A stretch of 64,000 nucleotides of DNA from an uncultured Pseudanabaenaceae cyanobacterium. GTDB lineage: Bacteria > Cyanobacteriota > Cyanobacteriia > PCC-9006 > JAAUQQ01. Below the pieces are notes generated by a model. The model was not told the origin of the DNA. It made no database searches and was given only the letters and a program-made list of their open reading frames with translations. Both the position numbers and the translations under genes were made by a program. Positions 17,343-58,198 of this stretch are shown here, in pieces (position 1 is the first letter of the stretch; each line of letters starts with the position of its first letter). Where the stretch lies: NCBI GenBank assembly GCA_938021205.1, contig CALIGI010000082.1:1111-65110 (forward strand), read 5' to 3'.

Positions 17343-17414
17343 TTCAAAAAATGGATTCTCAATTGATCAGCTAAAAGGCGAAGAATCGCATTTCAATTGA
17401 TCGATGAAGATCGC

Positions 17415-33787: not shown

Positions 33788-33806
33788 ATCACAAGATCTT
33801 CACATT
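33788..33806 (+). promoter_or_regulatory. TCACA-N6-TCACA direct-repeat box A, with a -10-like TAAGGT at 33814-33819
   Basis: ATCACAAGATCTTCACATT. There are 9 nt between the second TCACA and TAAGGT. The box lies 50 nt upstream of ATG 33856. Confidence 0.6.
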
Positions 33807-33855
33807 GGTTCTTTAAGGTGGACCCATAACCAAAGAGAATTTGAGAGCAAGAGCC

Positions 33856-34020
33856 ATGTCTGGTTATCCTGATTGCCCTTGCTGCTCCTATGAACTCCTT
33901 CGCCATGTGAGCGATCGAGGAACGGCTTGGTTCTGTTCCCATAGCTATCAAGAAATACCTGTATGGAGCCTATCCGATGGCTTGAAGATCTCTGCTATTG
34001 GAGCATCACGAAAAGCATGA
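33856..34020 (+). CDS. small Zn-ribbon-like protein (54 aa), copy A
   Basis: Hand translation gives MSGYPDCPCCSYELLRHVSDRGTAWFCSHSYQEIPV... It is a paralogue of 41922-42101, and the fourth Cys is replaced by Ser. Confidence 0.6.
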   Translation: MSGYPDCPCCSYELLRHVSDRGTAWFCSHSYQEIPVWSLSDGLKISAIGASRKA

Positions 34021-34367
34021 TGGAATTACGCCCCTGCGATCTCACCCGGCAGCCGACTACGCTCGGTCAGATCGTTGATGAATTTGTCAGTAGTTGCCCC
34101 ACCCCCATCTATGGGGATATCTTGGCTCGTCCGGTGGTGCGTCGCTATTTAATTAACTATGTTTTGCAGCGCATCCAGTGGGAGCTGCCTCCGGGGCTAC
34201 TGCGGGTGGATGAGACCCAGCCAGAGATGGCACGGCAGGATGTTGTCGCCTTTCGCCAATATGTTGAATGCGCGATCTACTGGGGCATGGAGGAGATTAT
34301 TCGCGATCGCCTCGACCTATCCCTGAGTGAGAGCCACAACAGCCTCGCGATCGGATCTGGGGGCTAA
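34017..34367 (+). CDS. uncharacterised 116-aa protein, copy A (paralogue of 42098-42457)
   Basis: ATGA start/stop overlap with the upstream Zn-ribbon ORF, as in copy B. The shared core is EFVSSCP.P.YG...RPVVRRYL..YVL.R.QWELP..LLRVDETQP...YVECAIYWGMEEIIRDRLDLSL. Confidence 0.75.
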   Translation: MMELRPCDLTRQPTTLGQIVDEFVSSCPTPIYGDILARPVVRRYLINYVLQRIQWELPPGLLRVDETQPEMARQDVVAFRQYVECAIYWGMEEIIRDRLDLSLSESHNSLAIGSGG

Positions 34368-34675
34368 CCTTTAACCCGTTCTCTCTCTGGTCTACCGCTT
34401 CCTAACGTTGCCAATGCCAAGGAGTTGAGGCTGAACCAACTAAAACCTGCGTAGAATCTGTTCGCAGTTCTCTGGGCTTGGTGAATTTAGCGACTCTACC
34501 CCCTGCCAAATCCCTTCAGTGGATATTTGAAAAGCGTCTTTGCTCCTAGGGTCAGTCAGTTGAATACGGAGTCTAAGCACCCTTGGGGAGAGAGCGACGA
34601 CTTCTCGCAGTGATTGTGCAGTTTGGCTAGCTTCCCCAAACATTCTCTAAAACTAAATTTGCTGAGTAGAGCCCC

Positions 34676-34858
34676 ATGAACATTGATCAAGAGCCCACCG
34701 CAGCAGCATCCTACGCTCGCACGTTAGTTGCTCGGGGCTGCCCCCAAAGGCTTGCTATTGTGGTTGGCACCATCTTGGCGAGAACCGACAACGCTCTGGA
34801 ATACACCCGCCAAGAAAAAGAACTGATTGGCCAAGCCTATGGGCATTTGGCTCGGTAG
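34676..34858 (+). CDS. hypothetical small protein
   Basis: 60-aa ORF only. Confidence 0.3.
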   Translation: MNIDQEPTAAASYARTLVARGCPQRLAIVVGTILARTDNALEYTRQEKELIGQAYGHLAR

Positions 34859-35065
34859 TTGAGGCCCGGTGAGCTGTTCTGAAGAAAGCAACATCTGGAA
34901 TTACATGAGCCCATTAAAGTCAGACAATGTGAGTGAGCTTCTTGTGACGTCCTAGTCACGGTGGGGACCTCTTGATCAAATGTTGACGTTCACGATAGAG
35001 CTAGTGAGGCTGGATCATAGGCTTGGAGGCTGTCAAACCTATGCGAGTTTAGAGATCTCTACACT

Positions 35066-35250
35066 CACAAAAGAAAGGGCCAGTCTAAGGAATTAGACTG
35101 GCCCTTTCTTTATATTCAATAGCCTATATAGTCCAACGATAAAAGTTGGGATGGCTAGTGGGATTTATACAACAAACAGTCAGTAAGTTAGCCGTTTTAT
35201 AATCCTCAAAAGGAGGTTTGGCCAACAAGATTTAAACAGTTGATTTGTCT
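35066..35250 (-). ncRNA. candidate small RNA (box C promoter to terminator, no ATG ORF)
   Basis: Box C at 35272-35290 points leftwards and the terminator at 35110-35071 closes the unit. I found no ATG in the intervening minus-strand sequence. Confidence 0.3.
35071..35110. terminator. bidirectional intrinsic terminator
   Basis: Perfect 16-bp stem AAGAAAGGGCCAGTCT / AGACTGGCCCTTTCTT with loop AAGGAATT. T-rich sequence follows on both strands. Confidence 0.8.
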
Positions 35251-35271
35251 CTTACCTATTGAACCTCACGC

Positions 35272-35290
35272 AATGTGAAGATCTTGTGAA
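35272..35290 (-). promoter_or_regulatory. TCACA-N6-TCACA direct-repeat box C (minus orientation)
   Basis: The minus strand reads TTCACAAGATCTTCACATT. Possible -10 hexamers are TTCAAT (35263-35258) or TAGGTA (35258-35253), so the spacing differs from boxes A, B and D. Confidence 0.5.
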
Positions 35291-35505
35291 TAGGCCAATC
35301 TAAATGCAGACCATCGAAATTTCATGGGACCGGAGAGACTGGTACCAAACTCGCTAGGGGCTGGGGATGACCCGGCTTTATTGAGCCAAGGTAGAGTCAC
35401 GGCAATGCGGTTACATTCTTAAAACTACATTTAACTTCATGTTTCGTAGTGGGTTTGTGAGATTTCTAGACGGATACTTAAAACAAGCTAAATAATTTGG
35501 CTCCT

Positions 35506-37506
35506 ATGAAGATTCTGGTAGTCGAGGATGATGAAGCCTTTTCTGCTTTAGTTGAAGCTGCTCTAGAAGAACAGCATTACCAAGTGGATCGGGTGACTGA
35601 TGCCCAATCTGGGTGGGATTGGTTGGATGCCTATGAGTATGATTTAATTCTGCTGGATTTGATCTTGCCCGGTAAGGCAGATGGACTTTGCTTTTGTCGA
35701 GAGTTGCGGGCCAAGGGCGATCTTACGCCGGTTTTATTGATGACGGCGAATGAAGCCCAGTCCATTAAGGTTCAAGGATTGGATGCGGGGGCTGATGATT
35801 ATTTAGTTAAGCCTTTTGATTGGGCTGAGTTGTTGGCGCGAGTGCGTGCCCTATTGCGTCGGGGCCAGGATTCCCTGTCTCCCCTATTGGTCTGGGGGAC
35901 TTTAGAGTTGGACCCCAGCAGTTGCGAGGTGGTGTGCCAAGTTCAGCCGAATCTGTCCGGGGCAACTTCAGTGGGAACGGGGCCAAAAGTGCTGGCTCTC
36001 ACGGCTAAGGAATATAGCCTGTTGGAATTGTTGCTGCGTAATCCCCATCGCATTTTCAATGCGGGAGCATTATTGGATCGCCTGTGGGATTCCGAGGAGG
36101 CTCCATCGGAAAATGCAGTGCGAGCCCATATCAAAGGACTCCGCCGCAAGCTTAAGCAGGCGGGAGTTGGAGACCCTGTGGAGACGGTGTATGGCCTGGG
36201 CTATCGTTTGCGGGGGGCTCCATCCCAGGCGGAGGAGCCTTTTGCTGGGGCAGAGCAATCTGGTTCAACGGATCTTGCGGCGGAGTCTCCAGCGGGACAG
36301 CCTACTCCGGAGCCTTTTCAGCAGCAGCTTGAGCGGGTATGGCAGCGAGCCAGAAAAACCTATTTAGAGCAAGTGACGGCCTTGGATGGCATGGTGGAGC
36401 GTTTGCAGCAGCAGTCTACGACATCCTCCCTGTTCTTGACTCCAGAGGATTGGCAGCAAATGCGCCGTCAGGCCCATAGTCTTAAGGGGGGGCTGGGTAG
36501 CTTTGGGCTTCATGGGGCGGCGGCGGTGGCTGCCCAGCTCCAGGACTTAGTTGAGCCTGCCCTGGATGAGGGTAGCAAAAGTAGCGATGACTCAGGTGCT
36601 GTACCTCCTGCAGGTGGAGTACTACAGCCTCTCTTACTCCAGTTGCGTCAGGCGCTGGAAGCTGCTGTCACCTTGCAGCTAGAGCCTTTGGCACCGGATC
36701 CTCCAAGCCCCCCAGAGCCTTTAGGCCAATGTTGGTTGGCCACGACTGATGCTGCCCTAGTAGAGCGCTTGACGGCGATCGCGGTCAGCTCAGGTATTAC
36801 CCTAGATTTCCTATCATTGGAGGATTCTTTGGAGCGTTGCTTGCTCCCTCGGGAAGATGGCCTCTCCGCAGGGGGGGGAGCTCCACCCCAGGTGGTGATC
36901 TGGGATTTGGCGACAGTCCAGAGTGTTGCTTTAGAGCGTTTAGGAGGATTGCCTTGGATTGCCTTGATTGAAGGAGATTCTTTGCCCCAGCGAGTCAAGG
37001 CAGTCCAAGGCGGTAGCAGTTGCTGTGTGGATCGCCTTGCTGGCAGTGAGGCAATCATGGAAGCAGTCGCGGCTCAGTTGCAGCGGCTACGCCAAAAACA
37101 GTTGGGGGCGGCTAAGCTGCTGGCAGTGGATGATGATGCTCCGCTATTGAATCTGTTGGAAGGGATGTTGCAGCCCTGGGGGGTGGAGGTGACGCTGCTG
37201 AGCCAGCCTGAGCAGTTTTGGCAGGTGCTCCAGAAAACCCAGCCGGACCTGTTGCTGTTGGATGTGGAGATGCCTGGGGTCAATGGTTTAGACCTCTGCC
37301 GAGTGGTCCGTCAGGACCCTCAATGGTGCCGATTACCGATCTTGTTCCTCTCTTCTCGGCGGGATGGCCCCTTGCTGGAGCAGCTTTTTGCAGCGGGGGC
37401 CAGTGATTTCTTGAGCAAGCCAGTGACGGGGGAGATGCTGGTGGCTAGGGTCAGGAATTGTTTGGAGCAGTCTGCATTGGGTCAACCTCAGGTGCTGCTG
37501 TCATGA
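35506..37506 (+). CDS. multidomain response regulator: REC, OmpR-type winged helix, Hpt, receiver-like domain, REC
   Basis: REC1: KILVVEDDE...LILLDLILPG...LLMTA...YLVKPF. wHTH: LTAKEYSLLELLLRNPHRIF...VRAHIKGLRRKL...VYGLGYRL. Hpt: QAHSLKGGLGSFG. C-terminal REC: LLAVDDD...LLLLDVEMPG...FLSS...FLSKPV. Confidence 0.85.
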   Translation: MKILVVEDDEAFSALVEAALEEQHYQVDRVTDAQSGWDWLDAYEYDLILLDLILPGKADGLCFCRELRAKGDLTPVLLMTANEAQSIKVQGLDAGADDYLVKPFDWAELLARVRALLRRGQDSLSPLLVWGTLELDPSSCEVVCQVQPNLSGATSVGTGPKVLALTAKEYSLLELLLRNPHRIFNAGALLDRLWDSEEAPSENAVRAHIKGLRRKLKQAGVGDPVETVYGLGYRLRGAPSQAEEPFAGAEQSGSTDLAAESPAGQPTPEPFQQQLERVWQRARKTYLEQVTALDGMVERLQQQSTTSSLFLTPEDWQQMRRQAHSLKGGLGSFGLHGAAAVAAQLQDLVEPALDEGSKSSDDSGAVPPAGGVLQPLLLQLRQALEAAVTLQLEPLAPDPPSPPEPLGQCWLATTDAALVERLTAIAVSSGITLDFLSLEDSLERCLLPREDGLSAGGGAPPQVVIWDLATVQSVALERLGGLPWIALIEGDSLPQRVKAVQGGSSCCVDRLAGSEAIMEAVAAQLQRLRQKQLGAAKLLAVDDDAPLLNLLEGMLQPWGVEVTLLSQPEQFWQVLQKTQPDLLLLDVEMPGVNGLDLCRVVRQDPQWCRLPILFLSSRRDGPLLEQLFAAGASDFLSKPVTGEMLVARVRNCLEQSALGQPQVLLS

Positions 37507-37739
37507 TGATTTTAGGAGGAGGGTCGATGTTGAAGACGGGTGATGAATTCAATGGCAGTTTTGGGAGTCCCAGGAAAAAGGGCTTTTGAGATGGGTCGGG
37601 AGAGCAGTGGATGGTACGAGCCTGTGGGCTCACCTTGTGAGACCTGCCGTTGCCATTACTGCTGATTTTTGGGCTCTGGTTTTGATGATTGATGCGCTAT
37701 TTTCGCTTTGGCTTTGGCCCGTCCCCGTAAAATCCTAGG

Positions 37740-40466
37740 GTGTCTATGGCTCTCAATGAACCCAATCAAATATTTGCGAATATCGCCTTAAAGATCCGCC
37801 AGTCCTTGAATTTAGAGGACATTTTGGAGACGGCGGTGGCGGAGGTGCGCCAGTTGTTGGGCTGCGATCGCGTGCTGATCTATCGTTTCTATCCCGACTG
37901 GAGTGGTGTCATTGCGGTGGAATCGGTGGCGAGCGCTGAGCTTTCGATTTTGAGCCGTGTCATAAAGGACCCTTGTTTTGAGCAGAGTTGGTTGAAGCCC
38001 TATCGGGAGGGACGGCTCCAGGCCACCGCAGATGTTCAGCAGGCGGGCCTTCGAGATTGTTATGTGGAATTCCTAGGGGAGTTTCAGGTGCGGGCCAATC
38101 TGGTGGTGCCGATTCTCTTGGGCGATTGCGCTGAACCCCTGTGGGGGCTGTTGATCGCCCACCATTGTCAGAAGCCTCGTGTTTGGTCTGAGGAAGATGT
38201 TCAGTTACTGAAGCAATTGTCGGACCAGATGGCGATCGCCATTCAGCAGGCTTTGTTGCTCCAGCGCACCCAGGCTGAGCTGGTCGAACGTCGCCTGGCT
38301 GAGGCCAATTTGGAGGAGAGTGAGGCGCGCTTTCGTCGCCTGGCGGAACAGGCCCAGGATGTGATCTATCGCTATGTGTGGCAGCCTGAAGCCCAGGTGG
38401 AATACATTAACCCAGCCATTACGACCTTGACGGGCTACACCCCTGGAGAATTTTATGCCTCGCCGGAGTTGCTGTTTTCTCTGGTGCATCGCGAAGACTT
38501 GAAGCAGTTTCGTCAGCAACTTTCGCCTCAGCTCCAGAGTGCCGATGATGATGTGGAGCCCCAGCCCCGGTTGATCGTGTGGCGCTGCCTCCATAAGGCA
38601 GGCCACGTGTTGTGGGTTGAGCAGCGTTGTACGCCCCTGCGGAATGAAGCGGGAGAATTGGTGGCGGTGGAAGGGATTGTGCGGGATATTCGCGATCGCA
38701 TGGTGGATTTGACTCCTTCGCCCGCTGCCTCAGTGACTGAGGCCGGCTTGTCTCAGCTTGGGTTTGGTGCGGACGCTAGAAAGCGGCTGTGGCAGAGTCT
38801 GCGGGAGCCATTTTCTAGCCTAGCCCTGTCTCGCTATGCCAGTGCCAGCGTTATGGTGGGCATGATTTTTCTGGCGGAGGGGCTGCGTCAGGGGGGGCTA
38901 TCGGCTGCTAGCCAAATGCTGGTGCTGTTTGTCGGGCTGGTGCTAGCAGCCAGTGGAGGAGGATTGCAGGCAGGGGTGATGGCCACCCTCGCCCTCTGGC
39001 TATATCTCTTGGTTACGCTGGTGTTGGATGGAGCCACGGGGCGGACGGATTGGCCGCTATACCTGGCGATTTATGGGCTTGCCACGGCCATCGTGGCAGT
39101 GGTGGTGGGGCAGACCAAGGATCGCAGCCTTTCAGCCGATCAGGCCTTGAACCAGGTGAATGAAACTCTTGAACTGCGGGTGCAGGAGCGGACTGCAATC
39201 TTAGATCGCACCAATAATCAACTCCGAGAGGAAATTGAGGAGCGGCGGCGAGCCCAGGCGGCTCACCAGGCCGCAGAAATAGAATTGCAGCAGCTCAACC
39301 AGGTTTTGGAGAGTCGGGTCTTAGAGCGTACAGCGACCCTGGCAGCCTCCGAGGGACGGTGGCGCAATTTCATTGATACCGTGCGCTTGTTGGTTGTGGA
39401 TATCGGTGTGGATGGCCGAGTGAACTATGTCAATCCCCATTTCCTGACCCTGACAGGCTATGAAGCTGAGGCTGTGATTGGCTGCAATTGGTTTGAGACC
39501 TTTGTGCCCCGCCACCAGCTCTCCCAAACTCGGCAGATTTTTCAGGAGTTCCTGGATGAGGGCTTCCATTCCTATTTCCCCACGGTTATTTTGACGGACT
39601 CGGGCGAGGAGATCGTCGTGGCCTGGAATAACACGCTGCTGCACGATGCTGCTGGTCAGGTCCAGGGCAGCCTCAGCATTGGTGAAGATATCACTGAACG
39701 CTATGCTGTCTCCCGGATGAAGGATGAGTTTATTTCCGTGGTGAGTCATGAGTTGCGTACACCACTCACCTCCATTCATGGTGCTCTGGAACTGTTGGAT
39801 TCTGAGGTGGTGCCGCTGGAGTCGGAGCGGGGCCGTCAGGTATTGGCGATCGCCGCCGAAAATTCCCAGAGGCTGGTGCGCCTCGTCAATGACATCCTTC
39901 AGCTAGAGCGCTTGGAGTCGGGCAAGATCAACCTGAATCAGAATGTCCTGTGCAGTACTGAGGTCACGGCCCGAGCCCAGGAGCTGATGCAAATGCTCCT
40001 AGAGCGCTCTCAAATTCAGTTGGTTGTGGAGGATCCTGGTCTAGAGTTGTGGGCTGATGGCGATCGCATCATTCAGGTGCTGACTAATTTACTAGATAAC
40101 GCCATCAAGTTCTCGGAAGCGGATGGCCAAGTGAGCCTTACCGTGGAAGCGGCAGCTTCCCCCACGGTTCCGGGGCAAATGATGGTGTTGTTTAAGGTGA
40201 GTGACCAAGGTCGGGGGATTCCCCTAGATAAGCTGGGCAGTATCTTTGAGCGCTTTCACCAAGTGGATGCCTCGGATTCCCGTCGGCGTGGCGGCACGGG
40301 ATTGGGATTGGCCATTTGTCGCAGCATTGTCCAGCAACATGGCGGGCAGATTTGGGTGAACAGTACTTTGGGCCAAGGGAGTCACTTTTATTTTGTTTTG
40401 CCGTCGCAGCCTGAGGGAAAAGGCAAAATGCTGGAGGGCCAGAGATCCCCACCAAGCTCTACCTAG
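37740..40466 (+). CDS. sensor histidine kinase (GAF, PAS, 4-TM block, coiled coil, PAS, HisKA, HATPase)
   Basis: H-box VSHELRTPLTSI, N-box LTNLLDNAIKFS, G1 DQGRGIP and G2 GTGLGLAICRSIV. A hydrophobic block lies mid-protein. No C-terminal receiver. An alternative ATG is at 37746. Confidence 0.9.
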   Translation: MSMALNEPNQIFANIALKIRQSLNLEDILETAVAEVRQLLGCDRVLIYRFYPDWSGVIAVESVASAELSILSRVIKDPCFEQSWLKPYREGRLQATADVQQAGLRDCYVEFLGEFQVRANLVVPILLGDCAEPLWGLLIAHHCQKPRVWSEEDVQLLKQLSDQMAIAIQQALLLQRTQAELVERRLAEANLEESEARFRRLAEQAQDVIYRYVWQPEAQVEYINPAITTLTGYTPGEFYASPELLFSLVHREDLKQFRQQLSPQLQSADDDVEPQPRLIVWRCLHKAGHVLWVEQRCTPLRNEAGELVAVEGIVRDIRDRMVDLTPSPAASVTEAGLSQLGFGADARKRLWQSLREPFSSLALSRYASASVMVGMIFLAEGLRQGGLSAASQMLVLFVGLVLAASGGGLQAGVMATLALWLYLLVTLVLDGATGRTDWPLYLAIYGLATAIVAVVVGQTKDRSLSADQALNQVNETLELRVQERTAILDRTNNQLREEIEERRRAQAAHQAAEIELQQLNQVLESRVLERTATLAASEGRWRNFIDTVRLLVVDIGVDGRVNYVNPHFLTLTGYEAEAVIGCNWFETFVPRHQLSQTRQIFQEFLDEGFHSYFPTVILTDSGEEIVVAWNNTLLHDAAGQVQGSLSIGEDITERYAVSRMKDEFISVVSHELRTPLTSIHGALELLDSEVVPLESERGRQVLAIAAENSQRLVRLVNDILQLERLESGKINLNQNVLCSTEVTARAQELMQMLLERSQIQLVVEDPGLELWADGDRIIQVLTNLLDNAIKFSEADGQVSLTVEAAASPTVPGQMMVLFKVSDQGRGIPLDKLGSIFERFHQVDASDSRRRGGTGLGLAICRSIVQQHGGQIWVNSTLGQGSHFYFVLPSQPEGKGKMLEGQRSPPSST

Positions 40467-40687
40467 GCCCAGAAATGCTCCAAGAACAGCCTAAAAACTG
40501 CCCAGAAACCAGCAGAGCGTGGGGATTAGGACTGTTGGACGATTGGCCAGGGGAGCATTCCAGGTATAACGTGAGTTCGATAATTCTTGGGCTGTCCTCA
40601 CCTGGGTTGAGCTCAACAGGAGAGCCCCTAGTCCTTGGGGAAAAAGGAACGTCAAAATCTCTAAAAGCCTTGTGATTTTGCGTTCGG

Positions 40688-40725
40688 CTCCCTTCTCTCG
40701 TTGGAGAAAGGCTTAGGGGATGAGG
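40688..40725. repeat. G/C-tract stem-loop dispersed repeat
   Basis: CTCCCTTCTCtcgttgGAGAAAGG followed by CTTAGGGGATGAGG. Confidence 0.5.
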
Positions 40726-40830
40726 TTGTTTCTGTGTCTGTCGAGTCGAACTCAGGTCGGAATAGAAATCCCATGCTTAGAGACTGCTCTGAGCATGGGA
40801 ATGGGGTCAATCAATAGAGGTTAGAGGATA

Positions 40831-41211
40831 ATGACAAAACGAATCTTGATTATTGATGACGATGATGGCATTCGCGACATCGTTGCCATTTCGCTGGAGG
40901 CTTTAGCTGGATGGGAAGTCCTCAAGGCAGATTCTGGGCCAGCGGGGGTGGAACTGGCTCGTTCGGCTCAGCCCGACGGGATCTTGCTGGATGTGATGAT
41001 GCCAGGCCAGGATGGTATGGAGACCTTGAAGCAGCTCCAGGCTCAGCCTGAGACCTCTGCCATTGCGACGATTTTTCTCACGGCGAAGGCTCGCTCCAGT
41101 GAGCAAAAGCGATTATTAGATTTGGGCTGTGTGGGGTTAATTACGAAGCCCTTTGAAGTGCAAAAGCTAGTTCCGCAGATTTGTGAATTGTTGGGATGGC
41201 TCCTGCCCTAG
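40831..41211 (+). CDS. single-domain (CheY-like) response regulator
   Basis: ILIIDDDD, ILLDVMMPG, FLTAK and ITKPF. Confidence 0.9.
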   Translation: MTKRILIIDDDDGIRDIVAISLEALAGWEVLKADSGPAGVELARSAQPDGILLDVMMPGQDGMETLKQLQAQPETSAIATIFLTAKARSSEQKRLLDLGCVGLITKPFEVQKLVPQICELLGWLLP

Positions 41212-41293
41212 GTGCTCAGGTACCGCCGCCTTGGTCCGAATGGCTTTCCTGGCTGGCCTACTGAATCTAGGCGTATATGTCAGTGCGGTTGGG

Positions 41294-41312
41294 ATCACAA
41301 AATCCTCACAAT
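41294..41312 (+). promoter_or_regulatory. TCACA-N6-TCACA direct-repeat box D, with a -10-like TAGGCT at 41320-41325
   Basis: ATCACAAAATCCTCACAAT with a 9-nt spacer to TAGGCT. It lies about 90 nt upstream of ATG 41401. Confidence 0.55.
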
Positions 41313-41400
41313 CTTTTTCTAGGCTGAGGATTGTTGTGTTTCTTAGGGCAAATTTTTGGTAGAGGGCAAGTCACAAGCTCCGTTTCGCTTTGAGCGAGAA

Positions 41401-41793
41401 ATGACGATCTCGATATTGGAGAAGCAAGATGTAGCTGCACTGCAGGCGCTGAAGCAATTTTTGCTAAATATGCCCGGACCGAAGGCGATTGAGACTGTTT
41501 TGGTTCAGGCTGTTTGCTACTGCGCGGAGGAACGTCCAGAAGCTTTTAACTGGGTCGTTGCCCATGCTGCTCAGCTAGAGCCAGAGCTGCGACTGGAGCA
41601 GTGGGCTTACAACTTCGTGGTGAACGCCTTGGCGCAGAAGGGCTGTGTTGTGGGGCGAGAGTTTCGTTTTGAGCAACAGTCGGACTCCAGTCAGTTGCAA
41701 TTACATCTAGAGGCTATGGTCCGACAGATTCTCTGGGAGAACTGCTCCCAGGGGGAATGGTTGCTGCTGAATCGTTTGTTTGGGATTGAGTAA
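41401..41793 (+). CDS. uncharacterised 130-aa protein
   Basis: ORF with normal composition preceded by box D. No motif recognised. The ORF-track start at 41356 is a TTG. Confidence 0.55.
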   Translation: MTISILEKQDVAALQALKQFLLNMPGPKAIETVLVQAVCYCAEERPEAFNWVVAHAAQLEPELRLEQWAYNFVVNALAQKGCVVGREFRFEQQSDSSQLQLHLEAMVRQILWENCSQGEWLLLNRLFGIE

Positions 41794-41846
41794 ACTCAGG
41801 TGAGTTTTAGAGGGATAGTCGGTTCAGCACTATGGCTGACAGAACC

Positions 41847-41865
41847 ATCACAGGATCTTCACATT
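41847..41865 (+). promoter_or_regulatory. TCACA-N6-TCACA direct-repeat box B, with a -10-like TATAGT at 41873-41878
   Basis: ATCACAGGATCTTCACATT with a 9-nt spacer to TATAGT. It lies 57 nt upstream of ATG 41922. Confidence 0.6.
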
Positions 41866-41921
41866 GTTTCTTTATAGTTCAGTTAAGAACAAAACGAGAT
41901 GTGATTGGGGAGAAAGTTTAT

Positions 41922-42101
41922 ATGTCTGGATATCCTGCTTGCCCCTGCTGCTCCTATGAGCTTCTGCACCGTGTGAGTGCTAAGGGGTCTATCTGGTTCT
42001 GCTCCCATTGTTATCAAGAAATGCCTGTGGTGGATGTTAGCCAGTATCGGCTTTCTGGAACTTTGGTGTCACAAATTTCGAGAGGTACGCGGAAGTCATG
42101 A
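41922..42101 (+). CDS. small Zn-ribbon protein (59 aa), copy B
   Basis: MSGYPACPCCSYELLHRVSAKGSIWFCSHCYQEMPV, with CxCC ... CxxC intact. Confidence 0.65.
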   Translation: MSGYPACPCCSYELLHRVSAKGSIWFCSHCYQEMPVVDVSQYRLSGTLVSQISRGTRKS

Positions 42102-42457
42102 TGGAATCGACGTCTAGGGATAATGTTAGTGATAGTGCTCGTGCCCAGGATCGCATGACGCTGGGAGAGATCATTAATGAGTTTGTCTCCAGTTGCCCCT
42201 CGCCTCTCTATGGCGAAGCTCTGTCCCGCCCTGTGGTGCGTCGTTACTTGGTTGACTACGTTCTGAAGCGGGTTCAGTGGGAGCTACCGTCGGAGCTGTT
42301 ACGGGTGGATGAAACCCAGCCTGGTTCTGCTGCCCAAGATGCCATTACCTTTCGCGAATATGTGGAATGCGCCATTTACTGGGGCATGGAGGAGATCATT
42401 CGCGATCGCCTTGATCTGAGCTTAGTTGATGATGGATATCCGAATCCTGCGGCCTAG
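42098..42457 (+). CDS. uncharacterised 119-aa protein, copy B (paralogue of 34017-34367)
   Basis: ATGA overlap with the Zn-ribbon ORF. About 68 of 89 aligned residues are identical to copy A by hand count. Confidence 0.75.
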   Translation: MMESTSRDNVSDSARAQDRMTLGEIINEFVSSCPSPLYGEALSRPVVRRYLVDYVLKRVQWELPSELLRVDETQPGSAAQDAITFREYVECAIYWGMEEIIRDRLDLSLVDDGYPNPAA

Positions 42458-50028: not shown

Positions 50029-53000
50029 TCAAACGATTGCGAGTTCCGGCAATGCCTGGGAATTGCCAAACGATGCAGATAGTTCGATCAATTGTTCCAA
50101 GCTTTGCAGCAGTTGAGTTTGCTTGAAGGGCTTGGAGAAGTAATCAGCGGCTCCCAGGCTCATGGCGAGCTGGCGATGCTTGTCTCCGCTGCGGGAGGTG
50201 AGCATGACTACGGGAATGTCCTCGCAGTTTGGGAGGCTCTTGACCTGGGCCAGGAAGCCAAAACCATCCAGGCGAGGCATTTCTACGTCGCTCATGATCA
50301 CATCAGCGGTGATGCCGCTCTGGAGTTGGTCGATCGCATCTTGCCCATCCTTGGCCTGTTCCACGTGGTAACCCGCTTTTTCCAGCGTGATGCTGAGGAA
50401 GCGGCGTACGTTGATGGAGTCGTCGATGACGAGTACCGTACGTTTGTTGCTGATTGCTATGGGGAGGGCCAAGTTTTGCTCATGCAAATCCTGGCGCTGG
50501 GCATCGCGCAATACCCAGCTCATCAGTTTTTCCATTTCCACTAGGGGAACGACGCGGCCATCGCCCAGGACAACGCAGCCAGAGAAGCCCTGGGGTAGAC
50601 TGATTTTGCCTTCTACGGTTCGGGTGGTGACTTCCTGCTCACCCCAATAGCGATCGCATTCAATGGCGTAGGGTTCGTCTCCATGGGTCACGATCAGGGC
50701 GGAGCTTTGATCGATGATGGGAGAGCTTTCTGTTTCTAACTTAATCAGGGGGCGGACGAAGTGGAGCCAGTTCTGAAGGCGTAGTAGGGGAACGGTGTAG
50801 CCCTGCCATTCCAATAGGTCTTGCTCAGCAGCCTGTACAATTTTCTGTTGTTCTAACAACAACATCTCTTCGACGATATTGGCTGGAAACGCCATGACCA
50901 TGCCTTGGCATTCCACGACCAGCACTCGCGTCACCGAAAGAGAAAGGGGCACGGTTAGGGTAAAGGTACTGCCTTGACCGGTCTTGGTTTCGACGGTGAT
51001 GTCTCCTTGGATGTCTCGCAGGTTGCTGCGGACCACATCCATGCCGACCCCTCGACCGGAGAGGCTCGTGACTTGTTCGGCGGTGCTGAAGCCGGGCTCA
51101 AAGATGAGATTGACCAGCTCTTTGTCGCCCGAGACCTCGATTTCGGCAGGCGTCAGGCCCATGCTGAGTACCTTGCTGCGAATCTTCTCTAGGTTGATGC
51201 CTGCACCATCATCTTGGATGGTGATGGCGACTTGGTTGCCGCGATAGCTCGCGCCAATTTCGATATTGCCTTGGGGCGTTTTGCCTTGGGTGATGCGAGT
51301 CTCGCGGTCCTCAATGCCGTGGTCAAAGCAGTTGCGTAGCAGGTGCATGAGGGGATCTTGGAGCGCCTCAATAATGGTGCGCTCAATTAAGGTGTTGCTG
51401 CCCCGGACCTGAAGATCCACCTGTTTGTCATGGGCCATGGAGAGCTCCCGCAGTAGACGAGGGAAGCGATCGGTGATGGCGGACAGAGGGCGCATCCGCA
51501 TCTGGTTCATGCCCACTTGGAGTTGTTGGGCCGTGCGGTTGAGGCTACGAGAGACGGTTTCGGTTTCTCCCAGGGCTAGTTCGATATCGCTGGTCACTTC
51601 CTGGATTTGTACGACGCTGTCGATGATTTCCTGGGAGACGAGGTGCAGTTCGCTATATTGATCCATTTCCAGCAGGTCGAAGCTGTTGGATAGGGACTGA
51701 GTGCTTGGGATGGGGGTTGAGGGGGGTGGGGTCGTGCTTGGGTTTGCAGGGGTGGAGTTGTTGTGGGTGTTGGAAAGTTGTTGGGTGGCACCGCGATCAT
51801 AGGATTGGCGCAGGATGTTGTTTGCCTGGTCTAGGGACTTAACCCGTTGGTTGAGTAGGCCAAATAAGGTGCTGAGGTAGCCTAGTTGTATGCCCAAGCC
51901 GTTGCGATCAGTGGTGAGTTCGCCGAGGAGTTCTCCGAGGCGCTCTAACTTGCGCACGGAGACGCGGATGCTGGTGTCTTGTCCGGTGGTCGAGCTATTG
52001 TCATGTTCGTCAGTTGAGCTATTGTCAGCTTCTGACTCCGTCAATATGCTGGAGGTGAGCTGGGCGGCTTCTTGGGCGATCGCGTTGTGGTTCACCCCAG
52101 GTTCTTGAGGTGGTTCTGCTGTGGTGGGATTGGTGCTGTTAAAGTCGGCTAGCTCCTCTAGGTCAAAGGCTTCGTCGTTGAGAAAAATGCTGACTAACGT
52201 CTCTGCATCAAGGGCTGTCGGTTCTGAGCTTTCGGCTTCTGACGGCAGATCCGTCGCCGATGCCGGGAGAGGGCTAGGTTCAATTTTGGGTCTAGTCCCT
52301 GGTTCTGAGGATGCTTGGGGCGCTTCTAGGTCGTTCCCATTGGCCTGTTGAAGATCAGGTTGCTCTGTGCTTGAGAACGCGGGAGATTCTTCTAGGGGCA
52401 GATTGTCCGTGATTACTTCGTCTGCTTCTGGGGATATGACTGCTGCGGCTGGGGCTAAGGCGATCGCTTCAAGGCTAAAGTCCTCTGGCGTCATGCCCTC
52501 AAAGAGGCTGTCTAGCACGGCTTCATCAGCAGAAGCGATCGCCTCCACGGATATCTCAGGGGTGGGAGTGGTGGCGGTGGGAGCAGAGTCGTGGGTTGTA
52601 TTGTGCTGTGGGCTTGGTGATTCTGGGGACTGAGATTCTGGGGGCTGGGTATCCACAAGTCCCCCTAGGTTCAATAGATCCGCGAGGGAACTTTCAGTGT
52701 CTAAGCAGTCAGCTAGACCTGAGAAATTGGATGGTTCAATGCTCTCTCCCAAGTCTTCGGGGAAAAGGTCTTGAATTTGAGGGGCTGGCGTTGGTGTCTC
52801 TGATGATTCAGCTAGACTAGTTGTGTCAGCATTTTTGCCTGGCTGATCGGTCTCTTGGGTTGATGTGATCGCTGCTTTGATCGCTTGAGGCAAGAGAACA
52901 GTTTCCGGAATGAGCCCCGCTTGACCCACCAGGACGAGCCCATGGCTGCGTCGCAGGGGCTTGAGCACAGCTTGACAAACCTCCACGAGGTCACTTTCAG

Positions 53001-53661
53001 GGCAGTCGGTACAAAGCTGTAAACCGTGGTTACAGAGGGCGATGAACGGGCTGATTTCTAGCATTTCCCCCAGGCTGCCCATTTCTGCACAGGCGATGAG
53101 AAATTCCTGGCGGAGTAACGGGAGATCAGGATCCTGGATTGCCCCTTCAAGACGATCTAGGCAGGGACCAATTTCACTTTCAAACAGCATGACGCCCATG
53201 TCGCCACCCGCATCGGCCGCGAGACTGGCCTGCTCGTCAGCAGCAGTGGGGTCACCGAGGCGATCATATAGTTGGTCAAGCAACGGCTGGGTGTTGGCTT
53301 CAAGCCAGCCTGCATCAATACCGGAGCGCTCCCGGTAAAGCTCCAACATCTGGCTCATGCGATCCACTGCGCTGAGGAATAGGCGTTCGAGTTCACCTTC
53401 GGGCTCATAGCGTCCTCCCTGGAGGACTTTGAAGAAATCCTCCAAGCGATGGGCGACTTGGCTGAGTTCATGGAAGCCCATTAAGGCGGCTCCACCCTTG
53501 ATGGAATGGGCGGCTCGCAAGATTCCATCAATGGCTTCACGGGTGAGTTTTTGTTCGCCCAGTCCCAATAAGGCTGACTCGATGGTGTCCAGATACTCCT
53601 GGGCTTCCTCCAGGAACTGGAGGCGCACTAGCCATTCTTGATCTGACATTTGCTCCGACAT
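50029..53661 (-). CDS. hybrid CheA-type histidine kinase (Hpt, long acidic/Pro-rich linker, dimerisation, HATPase, CheW-like, REC); PilL/HmpE-like
   Basis: Hpt AAHSIKGGAALMG, N-box HLLRNCFDHGIE, G1 DDGAGI and G2 GRGVGMDVV. C-terminal REC: VLVIDDS...IMSDVEMPRLDG...MLTS...FSKPF. Confidence 0.9.
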   Translation of the reverse strand: MSEQMSDQEWLVRLQFLEEAQEYLDTIESALLGLGEQKLTREAIDGILRAAHSIKGGAALMGFHELSQVAHRLEDFFKVLQGGRYEPEGELERLFLSAVDRMSQMLELYRERSGIDAGWLEANTQPLLDQLYDRLGDPTAADEQASLAADAGGDMGVMLFESEIGPCLDRLEGAIQDPDLPLLRQEFLIACAEMGSLGEMLEISPFIALCNHGLQLCTDCPESDLVEVCQAVLKPLRRSHGLVLVGQAGLIPETVLLPQAIKAAITSTQETDQPGKNADTTSLAESSETPTPAPQIQDLFPEDLGESIEPSNFSGLADCLDTESSLADLLNLGGLVDTQPPESQSPESPSPQHNTTHDSAPTATTPTPEISVEAIASADEAVLDSLFEGMTPEDFSLEAIALAPAAAVISPEADEVITDNLPLEESPAFSSTEQPDLQQANGNDLEAPQASSEPGTRPKIEPSPLPASATDLPSEAESSEPTALDAETLVSIFLNDEAFDLEELADFNSTNPTTAEPPQEPGVNHNAIAQEAAQLTSSILTESEADNSSTDEHDNSSTTGQDTSIRVSVRKLERLGELLGELTTDRNGLGIQLGYLSTLFGLLNQRVKSLDQANNILRQSYDRGATQQLSNTHNNSTPANPSTTPPPSTPIPSTQSLSNSFDLLEMDQYSELHLVSQEIIDSVVQIQEVTSDIELALGETETVSRSLNRTAQQLQVGMNQMRMRPLSAITDRFPRLLRELSMAHDKQVDLQVRGSNTLIERTIIEALQDPLMHLLRNCFDHGIEDRETRITQGKTPQGNIEIGASYRGNQVAITIQDDGAGINLEKIRSKVLSMGLTPAEIEVSGDKELVNLIFEPGFSTAEQVTSLSGRGVGMDVVRSNLRDIQGDITVETKTGQGSTFTLTVPLSLSVTRVLVVECQGMVMAFPANIVEEMLLLEQQKIVQAAEQDLLEWQGYTVPLLRLQNWLHFVRPLIKLETESSPIIDQSSALIVTHGDEPYAIECDRYWGEQEVTTRTVEGKISLPQGFSGCVVLGDGRVVPLVEMEKLMSWVLRDAQRQDLHEQNLALPIAISNKRTVLVIDDSINVRRFLSITLEKAGYHVEQAKDGQDAIDQLQSGITADVIMSDVEMPRLDGFGFLAQVKSLPNCEDIPVVMLTSRSGDKHRQLAMSLGAADYFSKPFKQTQLLQSLEQLIELSASFGNSQALPELAIV

Positions 53662-53851
53662 CTGAATCTGGCATCCTAAAACGGGGTGGGCGAAAACGGG
53701 TGAGCGAAGATTTGACTAGGCGCGCATTGGAGGCATAGGACTGGGCGGCGATCGCCCTAGCCCAATTGTCAAAAGGGAGTCCAGAACTCGACAATCCATG
53801 GCCATGGGGATGGCCTCTCAGTCTCGAGTTCCTACCTTGGCGAGGCATAAA

Positions 53852-56704: not shown

Positions 56705-57092
56705 GTCGTAAAACCTTGAGTGGAATAACTATTCAAGAAAAATTGGGAAACGCAAAAAGCGCTAAACGAGATTGAGCTACGCCAGGATTTTGTCCTCAGG
56801 CATGGCCAAACAAGTGTTCTGAAATAAGTGATTTAGGGGGCCGTCCCTCACATGCCTAAACAGACGTTCTCCCCCCAGGAAGGCTCTGCTAGGTCTCTGA
56901 GTGAGCCAGACGGGAGGAGACTCTGCCTGGCAGTTCATAGCCTGTTGCTCAGATCCATTGGGACATTCGTACTCTTTCGAAGGAGCTAAGGCAGACGTTG
57001 ATCTGAATAGCAATGGTTTTAACCAGTGAGACTATTGCCATTACCAACTTTGCGGCTTGCCCTGAGGTGCACCCATGATTATCCATAGTCTT

Positions 57093-57111
57093 TTTCCACA
57101 AACTGTGGAAA
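57093..57111. promoter_or_regulatory. perfect 8-3-8 palindrome in the cheW-mcp spacer
   Basis: TTTCCACA-AAC-TGTGGAAA. Confidence 0.4.
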
Positions 57112-57159
57112 GCTTGAAATAACTGTGCAAAAACTGGAAAAACCTTGGGGTAAATAGAG

Positions 57160-57828
57160 CTATGCTTGATAGCCGCTGTAGCTTGAAATCGCTACTGCAT
57201 CTAGGACTAGAAGCTTTTCATCATTTTGTGGAATACAGCCCTGTATGTAGGGGATGAGCCCTGGAGAAAGCTCGTTGTCGATAGCGGATTGAATCAACTC
57301 TGTGGAAAATCGGGTAACGCCTTGAACTTCTTGGACAGCTAGGCCGATGGGCTTATTGTTTACTCTTAGGATTGCCAAGTGGTATTCGGGCGATCGCGGA
57401 TCTAAAGGCGTCAGGCCAAATAACTGAGGCAAATCCAATACCCAGAAGATTCGACTCCGGTGATTGAGCAAGCCCATTACAGCAGCAGGCATATTGGGCA
57501 TGACCGTCAAACGCTGTTGAGGGATGACCAATACTTCTTGGGCCTGGTCAGTATTGATAGCAGCCAAAGTGTTGTCATCCAATCGCAGGCGGATATGGGG
57601 ATTACCAGTGGACTTGGTGCTGGATCCTCCCTGGAGCGCAACGGTGGGAATGGAAGCCAAGGTAATCTCTGTGGCTAAGGCAACGGTGTCGTTAACGGCA
57701 GTGTCTCCCACTGTTGTTGTCTCTGCGATCTCTTTGTTGCTGACAGCTTCACTTCCATCCCACTTTGCTAGCGCCAAGTCTGTTGCTAAGGCTTCTTGTT
57801 CAAGCCCATCATGCGTAGAATTCACCAT
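57160..57828 (-). CDS. CheW-like coupling protein (PilI/HmpC-like)
   Basis: QEVLVIPQQRLTVMPNMPAAVMGLLNHRSRIFWVLDL...LAILRV...IGLAVQEVQGV. ATG 57828 avoids overlap with cheY. Confidence 0.8.
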   Translation of the reverse strand: MVNSTHDGLEQEALATDLALAKWDGSEAVSNKEIAETTTVGDTAVNDTVALATEITLASIPTVALQGGSSTKSTGNPHIRLRLDDNTLAAINTDQAQEVLVIPQQRLTVMPNMPAAVMGLLNHRSRIFWVLDLPQLFGLTPLDPRSPEYHLAILRVNNKPIGLAVQEVQGVTRFSTELIQSAIDNELSPGLIPYIQGCIPQNDEKLLVLDAVAISSYSGYQA

Positions 57829-57835
57829 GGTTGCC

Positions 57836-58198
57836 TTACCCCACGACGGAAGTAACTGCATTGACGATCTCTTCCTTGCTGTAGGGCTTGGTGATATAGA
57901 TTTTGATGCCTTGCTTCATGCCCCAGAGGCGATCGAGCTCCTGGTTCTTGGACGTACAAGCAATGACAGGCAAAGTCTCAGTTTTGGGATTCTTCTTGAG
58001 GTTGCGGCACAGCTCCAGCCCGCTCATGCCAGGCATCACAAGGTCGGTCACCACCAAGTCAGGCTCAATGGACTCTAGCTTTTGCAAAGCTTCATTGCCG
58101 TTGCTGGCATCAACAACGAGGTGACCTGCTTCCTGGAGGTAACCGGTCATGAGTTCGCGTTCGGAGGCGGTGTCTTCGACGAGGAGAATAGTAGCCAT
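57836..58198 (-). CDS. CheY-like single-domain response regulator (PilH/HmpB-like)
   Basis: ILLVEDT, LVVTDLVMPG, ACTSK and ITKPY. ATG 58198 is preferred. Confidence 0.9.
   Translation of the reverse strand: MATILLVEDTASERELMTGYLQEAGHLVVDASNGNEALQKLESIEPDLVVTDLVMPGMSGLELCRNLKKNPKTETLPVIACTSKNQELDRLWGMKQGIKIYITKPYSKEEIVNAVTSVVG

Follow-up and report, generated by a model that had tools for sequence, protein, structure and literature searches.

The pho box, the operator of PhoB, is a pair of direct repeats, 11 bp in period, that takes the place of the −35 hexamer some 10 bp upstream of the −10 element and is bound head-to-tail by an OmpR-class winged helix. RcaC has the domain order REC-wHTH-HPt-REC, with the rca genes arranged as rcaE-rcaF-rcaC, and the sensor kinase of dpxABC is a DXCF-type cyanobacteriochrome. 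Upon phosphorylation, RcaC binds promoters at the L-box, whose position decides between activation and repression (PMC8256508, PMC5737509). For far-red light photoacclimation (FaRLiP), a dedicated conserved intergenic motif has been proposed upstream of the targets (bioRxiv 10.1101/2024.05.15.594131).

Here, we analysed the window, a 64-kb stretch of DNA from an uncultured Pseudanabaenaceae cyanobacterium, in which copies of a 19-nt TCACA-N6-TCACA box surround a phosphorelay cassette. Judged from sequence, the box is likely a pho-box-like operator of the hybrid OmpR-class regulator encoded between its copies, which would end a four-step relay of the Rca/Rfp type.

Results

The box and its promoters

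All four boxes picked out by eye in the earlier note were recovered by a pattern search of the whole window, each in its place and orientation and with 0 mismatches to WTCACARRATCYTCACAWT (Table 1), against a chance expectation of 0.28 and with at least four matches reached in 0/100 shuffles. A position weight matrix (PWM) trained on 20 related sites scored the four boxes at 29–36 bits, compared with a shuffle maximum of 21, while all other positions of the window stayed at ≤12 bits. That the box occurs nowhere else in the window held for the search for WTCACARRATCYTCACAWT with ≤3 mismatches, which yielded no match beyond boxes A, B, C and D, but needs qualifying for a decayed fifth copy, homologous to the third box of the orthologous locus L001, in which a 4-bp spacer insertion gives a 15-bp period followed by TTTAAT. 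With four copies per 64 kb and no weaker ones in the pattern and PWM scans, the box is not a dispersed repeat.

Table 1. Coordinates of the boxes, promoter elements and genes in the window
Feature	Position	Strand	Basis or remark
Box A (ATCACAAGATCTTCACATT)	33788..33806	+	Exact match; PWM 35.2 bits; aligns with orthologs' box B
−10-like hexamer TAAGGT, promoter A	33814..33819	+	9 nt past second half-site; TAnnnT column kept in alignment
Putative Zn-ribbon protein A, 54 aa, CPCC...CSHS	33856..34020	+	Translation; family alignment
116-aa orphan helical protein	34017..34367	+	Translation; p119 paralog; start overlaps Zn-ribbon A stop codon (ATGA)
Decayed fifth box	34920..34947	-	1-mismatch match; aligned to L001 2929-2947
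Candidate box-C-driven small RNA, ~180 nt	35069..35251	-	Start coordinate inferred; hairpin end, then U tract
−10-like hexamer TTCAAT, promoter C	35258..35263	-	10 nt past second half-site, not TAnnnT
Box C (TTCACAAGATCTTCACATT)	35272..35290	-	Exact match; divergent from regulator gene
Conserved block of ~95 bp directly upstream of regulator gene (promoter or leader)	35410..35505	+	Alignment of window, L001, L004
Hybrid response regulator, REC-wHTH(OmpR class)-HPt-REC, 666 aa	35506..37506	+	Pfam; proposed box binder
Sensor histidine kinase, 906 aa from ATG	37746..40466	+	Pfam; PDB phmmer
Single-domain CheY-like receiver, 126 aa	40831..41211	+	Pfam Response_reg 4e-24; proposed phosphate shuttle
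Box D (ATCACAAAATCCTCACAAT)	41294..41312	+	Exact match
−10-like hexamer TAGGCT, promoter D	41320..41325	+	9 nt past second half-site; invariant in all four orthologs
130-aa orphan protein 'p129'	41401..41793	+	Translation
Box B (ATCACAGGATCTTCACATT)	41847..41865	+	Exact match
−10-like hexamer TATAGT, promoter B	41873..41878	+	9 nt past second half-site
Putative Zn-ribbon protein B, 59 aa, CPCC...CSHC-YQEMP	41922..42101	+	Translation; family alignment including distant L036, L098 members
119-aa orphan helical protein 'p119'	42098..42457	+	Translation; translationally coupled to, and overlapping, Zn-ribbon B

The −10 hexamers proposed earlier for promoters A, D and B proved correct, starting exactly 9 nt past the second TCACA (in box A, the half-sites lie at 33789-33793 and 33800-33804). 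Promoter B reads TACAGT, TACTGT, TAAAGT and TATCTT in the orthologs, keeping TAnnnT in all, and TTnAAT was kept in 5/5 promoters of the small RNA type. Of 20 compiled sites, 15 carried TAnnnT at exactly +9 and five TTnAAT at +9 or +10; in an independent sample, TAnnnT stood at +9 in 6/6 sites. The half-site period was 11 bp and the second core position was C at 26/26 sites. This fixed distance to a conserved −10 hexamer bears out the proposal that the direct repeat stands in for the −35 region.

The same position could also serve repression, the adjacent regulator occupying the −35 region and blocking RNA polymerase so that the units are on when the relay is off, as RcaC both activates and represses by L-box site and orientation (PMC8256508). 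We hold this to be unlikely, since no −35 hexamer was read from the sequence at 17 ± 1 bp from the −10 of the window promoters, the site and orientation of the box are those of class II activators such as PhoB, and its orientation relative to the −10 is identical at 26/26 sites. The box position together with the missing −35 hexamer suggests instead that the regulator would recruit RNA polymerase in a PhoB-like manner.

Conservation at orthologous loci

Four orthologous loci from Pseudanabaenaceae/Synechococcales (L001, L004, L007 and L008) were compared. Rather than lacking the box, which would have spoken against a regulatory role, they retained TCACA-N6-TCACA with TAnnnT 9 nt downstream at the same gene junctions amid diverged flanking DNA. 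Box B was identical in all four, box C was identical in L001 and L004 at an unchanged position, and box D was kept in L001, L004 and L007 with the DNA upstream diverged. The box is thus a footprint under purifying selection. The conserved block upstream of the regulator gene contained no full box.

These data bear on whether the copies might lack a regulatory role, being left over from segmental duplication or belonging to a short dispersed repeat. Units A and B are indeed paralogous, and the likeness of boxes A and B alone could have been inherited; but boxes C and D precede unrelated sequences, the box and −10 stay unchanged between species where the flanks cannot be aligned, the copies in the window are few and without weaker companions, and promoters of homologous genes again carry the box in lineages with 28–40% protein identity. 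We give this reading hardly any credence, the footprint and co-occurrence data having effectively refuted it.

Proposed regulated units

The composition of the four driven units matched the earlier description: a Zn-ribbon plus 116-aa ORF (A), a 130-aa ORF (D), a Zn-ribbon plus 119-aa ORF (B) and an ORF-less stretch ending in a strong hairpin at ~35110-35073 (C). Unit A is a recent duplicate of unit B, the 116-aa protein being 76% identical to p119 over 89 residues, and its Zn-ribbon motif indicates that the fourth Cys was lost. The output proteins, which the earlier note did not recognise, indeed belong to no Pfam or NCBIfam family and match no PDB fold. The AF2 model of p129 (pLDDT 82.6, pTM 0.76) found no PDB match, nor did that of p119, which is all-helical (pLDDT 67); relatives of p119 amounted to 14 clusters among 5.8 billion proteins and four representatives among 1.84 billion. 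Box-driven homologs of p129 were found in five distant loci (L036, L098, L120, L122 and L123), so that the p129 family stands out as the signature target of the box in different lineages.

In the candidate small RNA region, no conserved ORF was found, with 1-nt indels between orthologs. RNAalifold gave 36 pairs, nine of them with compensatory changes, with 93.7% of cells paired; the observed covariation was reached by 0/500 shuffles, and slid controls had 0–3 compensatory pairs. No Rfam family matched the candidate at threshold.

The phosphorelay cassette

The regulator, put forward in the earlier note as the only winged-helix protein nearby, carries the sole OmpR-type winged helix that tblastn found in the window. 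It matched Response_reg twice (4e-53), Trans_reg_C (6e-21) and Hpt (4e-10) in Pfam, its phospho-acceptor motifs LILLDLILP, AHSLKG and LLLLDVEMP are intact in translation, and its recognition helix, ENAVRAHIKGLRRKL, is conserved with distant box-linked regulators. The kinase is ordered as cyanobacteriochrome-type GAF, PAS, hydrophobic segment, PAS, HisKA and HATPase, with PDB phmmer matches to 6oap (7e-46), TePixJ 3vv4 (1.5e-37) and RcaE 7ckv (1e-32). In its GAF, DPCF and DCY align to both chromophore cysteines (DXCF and canonical), which are kept in the four orthologs, so that the kinase input is probably light. In 3/4 orthologs the canonical Cys is followed by Tyr instead of His, and bilin binding by this GAF is therefore only putative. 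In the order RR-HK-CheY the cassette has the complete set of relay parts and, by its predicted domains, matches the RcaC/RfpB type of four-step relay; given the cyanobacteriochrome-type GAF, it resembles light-colour relays of the Rca/Rfp kind. Some other modules have non-GAF sensors (HAMP-PAS), so light does not serve as an input throughout the family.

The box and module in distant lineages

Box-linked modules recurred in lineages whose regulator is only 38% identical and whose CheY-like proteins are 55–67% identical to that of the window. Contig Ga0207419_1001348 has the order [box]-RR-HK-CheY-[box]-p129-Zn-ribbon, L108 [box]-DUF1816-RR...HK-CheY, L029 HK-CheY-[box], and L036, which shares its metagenome but not its contig with L108, [box]-p129-Zn-ribbon. 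A further sample of eight RcaC-like modules (165 kb), picked by regulator homology alone, contained six exact boxes versus ~0.3 expected, three immediately preceding p129 homologs and two immediately following the CheY gene; at 3/8 modules (L117, L121 and L124, the last truncated just past its CheY gene), no box lay within ±10 kb. The box is thus not private to the window locus but probably a family-wide operator, enriched, at a fixed promoter position, and co-occurring with the module and p129 across lineages. In L108 and L114 it lies upstream of the relay genes, where the window has the box-less conserved block, so the wiring varies between loci.

The recognition helix hardly differs throughout the RcaC-like family, in thousands of regulators, and specificity may be shared; with possible paralogs per genome, a paralogous regulator encoded at another locus might use the box as well or compete for it. 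A true OmpR-class operator might then be bound from outside the window, by such a paralog or by the global RpaB, whose site HLR1 is a direct repeat with the core xTTACA, TTACA being one base from TCACA. HLR1, however, has a period of 10 bp rather than 11 bp, and T where the core of the box has its invariant C; moreover, the box accompanies modules of this type in several lineages, in many cases lying right at their 3′ or 5′ end, and the window encodes no other wHTH. An outside binder accordingly seems improbable to us compared with the regulator encoded between the boxes.

Discussion

We infer binding of the box by this regulator, with an activating rather than a repressing effect, a requirement for phosphorylation, and light as the signal. 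In the proposed mechanism, the kinase would autophosphorylate on light quality, and phosphate would pass to the CheY-like protein, the HPt histidine of the regulator and its N-terminal receiver (His-Asp-His-Asp). The activated regulator would bind the two TCACA half-sites head-to-tail at 11-bp spacing, with the box covering roughly −37 to −22, and would recruit RNA polymerase as PhoB does at the pho box. The outputs in the window would be four units: p129, Zn-ribbon/p119, its recent duplicate, and the divergent, structured small RNA. The recurrence of box, relay and target protein in distant cyanobacteria speaks for a regulon not described before, although its regulatory type is familiar.

Compared with the window system, PhoB has another half-site sequence, a simple two-domain build and a phosphate-limitation signal, and RpaB, likewise a cyanobacterial OmpR-class regulator, is global and unlinked to its targets. 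Read as TTGCACA-N4-TTGCACA, the L-box would share the 11-bp period and CACA core of the window box; the rca gene order differs from RR-HK-CheY.

In dpxABC, found in scattered cyanobacteria including Pseudanabaena, a cyanobacteriochrome kinase is likewise co-transcribed with a single-domain receiver, but the third gene encodes a hybrid histidine kinase rather than a DNA-binding hybrid regulator, an architecture that mismatches the cassette (PMC13492139); no operator is known for it. RcaE-RcaF-RcaC of type III chromatic acclimation is similarly a four-step relay, in which a cyanobacteriochrome kinase signals via a small receiver to a regulator acting on a short promoter repeat (PMC8256508, PMC5737509, PMC13492139). 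Unlike the window kinase with its DXCF-type GAF, RcaE is PAS-GAF-PAS-HK (PMC4658448) with a green/red photocycle (PMC13492139), and the phycocyanin, phycoerythrin and bilin synthesis genes of the RcaC regulon are absent near the window boxes.

The RfpB-RfpA-RfpC master switch of far-red light photoacclimation differs in that RfpA is a knotless phytochrome (GAF-PHY-PAS-HK), compared with GAF (DXCF type)-PAS-hydrophobic segment-PAS-HK here; in that its targets are photosystem and phycobilisome paralogs rather than orphan small proteins and an RNA; and in that the FaRLiP motif is reported to be T-rich and 33–61 bp long, unlike the TCACA direct repeat. Its operon rfpB-rfpA-rfpC nevertheless encodes, as does the cassette, a hybrid regulator, a sensor kinase and a CheY-like protein (PMC4658448). 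RfpA, a bilin photoreceptor kinase that starts with GAF, and the CheY-like RfpC, a proposed shuttle, both resemble their cassette counterparts, and RfpB, whose receivers flank an OmpR-class winged helix, is like the window regulator in architecture and gene order (PMC4658448).

The TCACA-N6-TCACA box and its promoter geometry

Each of the four boxes surrounding the phosphorelay cassette matched the degenerate pattern of the earlier note with zero mismatches. The accompanying claim that the box occurs nowhere else in the window held for intact copies, no further match being found at <=3 mismatches over 64 kb, but a decayed fifth copy exists. In shuffled sequences the pattern was matched 0.28 times on average and 0 of 100 shuffles reached four; a PWM built from 20 related sites scored the window boxes at 29-36 bits, other window positions at <=12 and the shuffle maximum at 21. 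As read from the sequence, the -10-like hexamers TAAGGT, TAGGCT and TATAGT of boxes A, D and B start exactly 9 nt past the second TCACA, and the four units have the gene content first described; box C is followed at 10 nt by TTCAAT, not by TAnnnT. When these 20 compiled sites were joined with six from the eight-module sample described below, the direct repeat with its 11-bp period was present at 26/26, and TAnnnT lay exactly 9 nt downstream at 21 of them, the other five having TTnAAT 9-10 nt downstream. No TTGACA-like hexamer was found at 17 +/- 1 bp and the box orientation is fixed relative to the -10, bearing out the proposal that the box takes the place of the -35 element; pho boxes and other class II OmpR-class activator sites have the same promoter geometry. 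A generic promoter/terminator scan of the window, which misses activator-type box promoters, returned nothing above background. The possibility that the box belongs to a dispersed repeat or mobile element, raised at the outset, was rejected, as conservation is confined to ~30 bp, only four copies are present and the box is always promoter-positioned.

Coordinates of the features discussed (window coordinates unless a locus is named)
Feature	Position	Strand	Description
Box A	33788-33806	+	
Unit A	33856-34367		Zn-ribbon and 116-aa genes
60-aa ORF	34676-34858	+	antisense overlap with 56-aa ORF
56-aa ORF	34724-34894	-	antisense overlap with 60-aa ORF
Decayed fifth box	34920-34947	-	GTCACAAGAAGCTCACTCACATTGTCTGACTTTAAT; 4-bp insertion in spacer
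Small-RNA terminator hairpin	35070-35112		
Box C	35272-35290	-	
Conserved ~95-bp block	35410-35505	+	directly 5' of regulator start codon
Hybrid regulator	35506-37506	+	REC 3-114, Trans_reg_C 163-235, Hpt 304-386, second REC C-terminal
Sensor kinase	37746-40466	+	N-terminal GAF, PAS, hydrophobic stretch, second PAS, HisKA/HATPase core
Kinase hydrophobic stretch	38800-39150		kinase residues ~355-470
CheY-like shuttle	40831-41211	+	126-aa single-domain receiver
Box D	41294-41312	+	
p129 leader end	41384-41403	+	TTCGCTTTGAGCGAGAAATG
Box B	41847-41865	+	
Unit B	41922-42457		Zn-ribbon and 119-aa (p119) genes
Chemotaxis-like cluster	50029-61653	-	
L001, small-RNA region	2256-3546		
L001, boxes of the small-RNA copies	3478-3496, 2488-2506	-	
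L001, third box	2929-2947	-	drives 76-aa coiled-coil-like ORF
L008, rearranged cassette	1-960		
L123, second box and its transcript	17330-17422	-	
L092, box and -10	~10141	-	
L040, box and -10	7179	+	
L045, box and -10	1397	-	
L073, box and -10	2831	+	

Conservation of the box in orthologous loci

Close relatives of the locus were found on contigs of uncultured Pseudanabaenaceae MAGs and of Synechococcales RM1_1_8, in which the genes for the regulator, the kinase, CheY, the 130-aa protein (p129), the Zn-ribbon protein and a 113-123-aa protein follow one another as in the window; the concern that orthologous loci might lack the box was laid to rest by its retention at the same three junctions. 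Intergenic regions were unalignable upstream of the box and near-invariant from the first TCACA through the -10 hexamer; the B/A-type hexamers varied only within TAnnnT (TATAGT, TACAGT, TACTGT, TAAAGT, TATCTT and TAAGGT), and the D-type TAGGCT was invariant. These alignments read as classical footprints of a cis-element, the box, on which purifying selection is strong.

Unit A is missing from the orthologous loci L001 and L004, and in its Zn-ribbon the fourth Cys is gone (CSHS versus CSHC in unit B); it is therefore a recent lineage-specific duplicate of unit B. The cassette is rearranged in L008, the RM1_1_8 locus, where the CheY gene directly follows a receiver 71% identical to the regulator C-terminus, with no kinase or p129 gene between, and box B and the Zn-ribbon/p119 pair come next. 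Elsewhere in the window, a chemotaxis-like cluster that is syntenic in L001 and L004 encodes a hybrid CheA (Hpt-HATPase-CheW-REC, 1210 aa), an MCP with dCache, HAMP and GAF (950 aa), CheW and receiver-containing ORFs, and resembles a phototaxis or motility system.

The relay cassette and its putative light sensor

The regulator falls into the OmpR/PhoB class (Pfam Response_reg 4e-53, Trans_reg_C 6e-21) and, as the earlier note had it, is the only OmpR-type winged helix detectable in the window. Its translation carries phospho-acceptor motifs for all three phosphorylatable domains (LILLDLILP, AHSLKG and LLLLDVEMP), the kinase has the H-box SHELRTPL and the shuttle the receiver motif GILLDVMMP; the regulator-kinase-shuttle order recurs in L001 and L004 and in the distant modules L119, L120, L122, L123 and L124. 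By domain order, gene order and the complete phospho-acceptor set, the cassette qualifies as a predicted RcaC/RfpB-type four-step relay. Identity with the RppA (NrsR) equivalog NF041734, a two-domain regulator of ~229 aa paired with the RppB kinase, was considered, as the first 236 residues reach 256.5 bits, just over the cut-off of 250; yet the protein runs on for 430 residues, and the assignment was excluded because of these extra HPt and receiver domains and because the kinase fails on RppB (146 against a cut-off of 400). Among its relatives, six close orthologs at 69-100% identity are followed by a gap down to ~40%, at which level the nearest further homologs are unnamed.

The ~95-bp block preceding the regulator gene is near-invariant in the window, L001 and L004, has no full box, and probably serves as promoter or leader of the relay operon itself. 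In the distant loci L108 and L114 the place upstream of the regulator is taken by a box, which suggests autoregulation there.

The kinase GAF domain matched solved cyanobacteriochromes (6oap 7e-46, TePixJ 1.5e-37, NpR6012g4 9e-37 and RcaE 1e-32), its DPCF and DCY aligning with the DPCF (second Cys) and ECH (canonical chromophore Cys) of TePixJ. Both cysteines are kept in 4/4 orthologous kinases and in the Limnospira module (L119), where the kinase GAF is homologous and its DPCF and Cys-Tyr recur; there are also modules with HAMP-PAS sensors. The canonical Cys is followed by Tyr in the window, L001, L007 and Limnospira, and by His in L004 only. Light is thus the probable input to the window's relay, through a putative DXCF cyanobacteriochrome. 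The hydrophobic stretch of ~100 residues between the GAF-PAS sensor and the PAS-kinase core probably forms several membrane helices, a placement unusual for a cyanobacteriochrome kinase.

The candidate box-C RNA

The stretch that follows box C has conserved counterparts in L004 and, twice, in L001; the copies differ by 1-nt indels and have no ORF in common. On these four sequences only, RNAalifold gave five helices with 36 pairs in all and compensatory changes at nine of these pairs, two-thirds of the covariation being within the terminator; 93.7% of the cells were paired, 0 of 500 shuffles reached the observed covariation, and slid partners yielded 0-3 compensatory pairs. Rfam held no family at threshold, and the sub-threshold matches to SSRC10 (35.7 bits versus 56) and RefA9 were judged spurious, as they cover the terminator hairpin alone. 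RNAduplex, which ignores accessibility, showed no enrichment for cassette or target genes when the small RNA was compared with 92 translation-initiation regions.

The terminator hairpin is symmetrical enough for termination in both directions, and between it and unit A lie the two antisense ORFs of 60 and 56 aa, candidates only, for which no family was detectable. The window's decayed fifth box is homologous to the third box of L001, and no ORF homologous to the L001 76-aa ORF was found downstream of it. L001 has two small-RNA copies plus this third box; between close relatives, therefore, the upstream arm of the regulon expands and contracts.

Recurrence of the box in distant relay modules

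A metagenome scan with the box and the -10 at the observed spacing gave 108 matches, most of them unrelated sequences, the informative ones being HIP1-rich (cyanobacterial). A low-GC human-gut-assembly sequence, TTTTCACAAAATCTTCACATTCATAATAATTATATG, matched the pattern in dozens of samples (L014, L020-L022 and many others) and was set aside as unrelated to the cyanobacterial system. One distant contig (L098 and L114) reads box-regulator (38% identical)-kinase-CheY (60%)-box-p129 homolog (31%)-Zn-ribbon (50%); L108 reads box-DUF1816 protein-regulator...kinase-CheY; the order in L036, which comes from a separate contig of the L108 metagenome, is box-p129 homolog-Zn-ribbon; and L029 reads kinase-CheY-box. 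In these scan-found loci the box is a cleaner repeat, CCTCACA-N4-CCTCACA.

The scan loci were selected via the box itself; hence a second sample unbiased towards it was taken, namely eight RcaC-like regulators ~40% identical to the window's, picked by homology and contig size only, with 10-kb flanks. These 165.4 kb contained six exact TCACA-N6-TCACA versus ~0.3 expected under uniform composition, and all six were followed by TAnnnT exactly 9 nt later. Three lie directly upstream of p129 homologs (L120, L122 and L123; E 1e-9 to 1e-45 against the window, L036 or L120 proteins), and two right after the CheY gene, which is the position of box D (L119 and L122). The CheY-like proteins of this sample are 55-61% identical to the window's. 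In L123 a second box, divergent from the p129 promoter, would give a ~55-nt transcript ending at a strong hairpin, a candidate for another small RNA under a box, though its sequence has no relation to that of the window's RNA; L118 (Chroococcidiopsis) has two one-mismatch sites, one divergent from the regulator like box C. No box was found within the 10-kb flanks of three of the eight modules, one of which is cut off at its CheY gene. These comparative data suggest that the window's module represents a widespread family.

In other HIP1-rich loci a box and -10 precede the genes of a PATAN-type receiver protein (390 aa; L092), a conserved 546-aa protein (the orthologous loci L040 and L045) and an EF-G paralog (L073); they may be additional members of the regulon or simply match by chance.

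Proposed output proteins

The p129, p119 and Zn-ribbon proteins matched no Pfam or NCBIfam family, and PDB fold searches with the p129 and p119 models gave no match with E below 0.3. The p129 family model (pLDDT 82.6, pTM 0.76) is mostly helical with a small hairpin, and that of p119 (pLDDT 67) is all-helical. The distribution of p119 is extremely narrow: its relatives form 14 clusters among 5.8 billion proteins, and a deep profile search retrieved only 4 representatives among 1.84 billion. Zn-ribbon proteins share the motif CPCC-x16-C-x-H-C-x-Q-E/A-MP across lineages, and in the window an ATGA overlap joins each Zn-ribbon gene to the one after it, suggestive of translational coupling and of a protein pair. 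As small proteins under the control of a signalling module, the outputs may, speculatively, be regulatory adaptors. The last ~20 nt of the p129 5' leader, with a small CGCT/AGCG hairpin, are invariant in four species, the remaining leader diverging, and may act as a translational control element.

The predicted binder and the proposed regulon

The association of box and module spans lineages whose regulators are only ~40% identical, and holds where the target is 4-6 kb away (L120 and L122) and even, if L036 and L108 come from one genome, where the two are on separate contigs. The predicted binder, by far the most parsimonious on these comparisons, is therefore the regulator that the module itself encodes. 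The window's regulator and the distant box-linked regulators have a conserved recognition helix (ENAVRAHIKGLRRKL and ETAVRTQIKGLRQKL, respectively); its near-identity across the whole RcaC-like family fits a shared core specificity. In the mechanism proposed, light would feed the relay, phosphorylation would be needed for regulator action, and binding at the box would activate transcription.

Taken to its full extent, a reading that we offer tentatively and regard as somewhat improbable as it stands, the data could describe a widespread, unrecognised cyanobacterial regulon serving a new acclimation response, in which RR(REC-wHTH-HPt-REC)-HK-CheY modules with interchangeable sensors share one operator, TCACA-N6-TCACA, and one hallmark output, p129, often together with the CPCC Zn-ribbon and a small RNA. 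No description of the module, operator or targets was found in the searchable literature. RcaC/RfpB-type hybrids are among the commonest multidomain regulators in cyanobacteria, with >4,700 homologs scored, and to our knowledge the physiology of only two is known. The operator at this locus is short and sharply delimited, its promoter geometry is fixed and its candidate direct targets are few, so that a large class of unstudied regulators becomes directly testable, and p129, as the conserved hallmark target, could be a marker for finding the regulon in any genome. The roles of p129, p119 and the Zn-ribbon proteins would be new biology, and a ~40-bp photoreceptor-controlled promoter is a possible gain for cyanobacterial synthetic biology.

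Comparison with known systems

The operator recognized by RcaC, the L-box, is taken to be TTGCACA-N4-TTGCACA; with that sequence it would have the 11-bp period and CACA core of the box, and G where the box has T. GCACA-N6-GCACA was not found in the eight sampled modules. Given the shared recognition helix and this possible similarity to the L-box, cross-talk with paralogs may occur. HLR1 of RpaB consists of (G/T)TTACA(T/A)(T/A) direct repeats with a 10-bp period, and the box was rejected as an HLR1, its core being TCACA with an invariant C and its period 11 bp at every site.

In kind, the proposed mechanism is familiar: an Rca/Rfp-type relay joined to an OmpR-class direct-repeat operator. The cassette was rejected as a dpx operon, since the third gene there encodes a hybrid kinase, DpxC, in place of any DNA-binding regulator. 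Its architecture and gene order match rfpB-rfpA-rfpC of far-red photoacclimation, in which RfpB carries a winged helix between two receivers and RfpC is a proposed phosphate shuttle (PMC4658448), and its relay logic is shared with RcaE-RcaF-RcaC of chromatic acclimation (PMC8256508, PMC13492139). A DNA motif for RfpB was still sought in 2023 (PMC10127269), and the FaRLiP motif, described as T-rich and 33-61 bp long, is not comparable to the box. Neither in the window nor in related loci was a phycobiliprotein or photosystem gene found downstream of a box. If the proposal is true, the response would be distinct from both chromatic acclimation and FaRLiP, its effectors being small regulatory proteins and not photosynthetic subunits.
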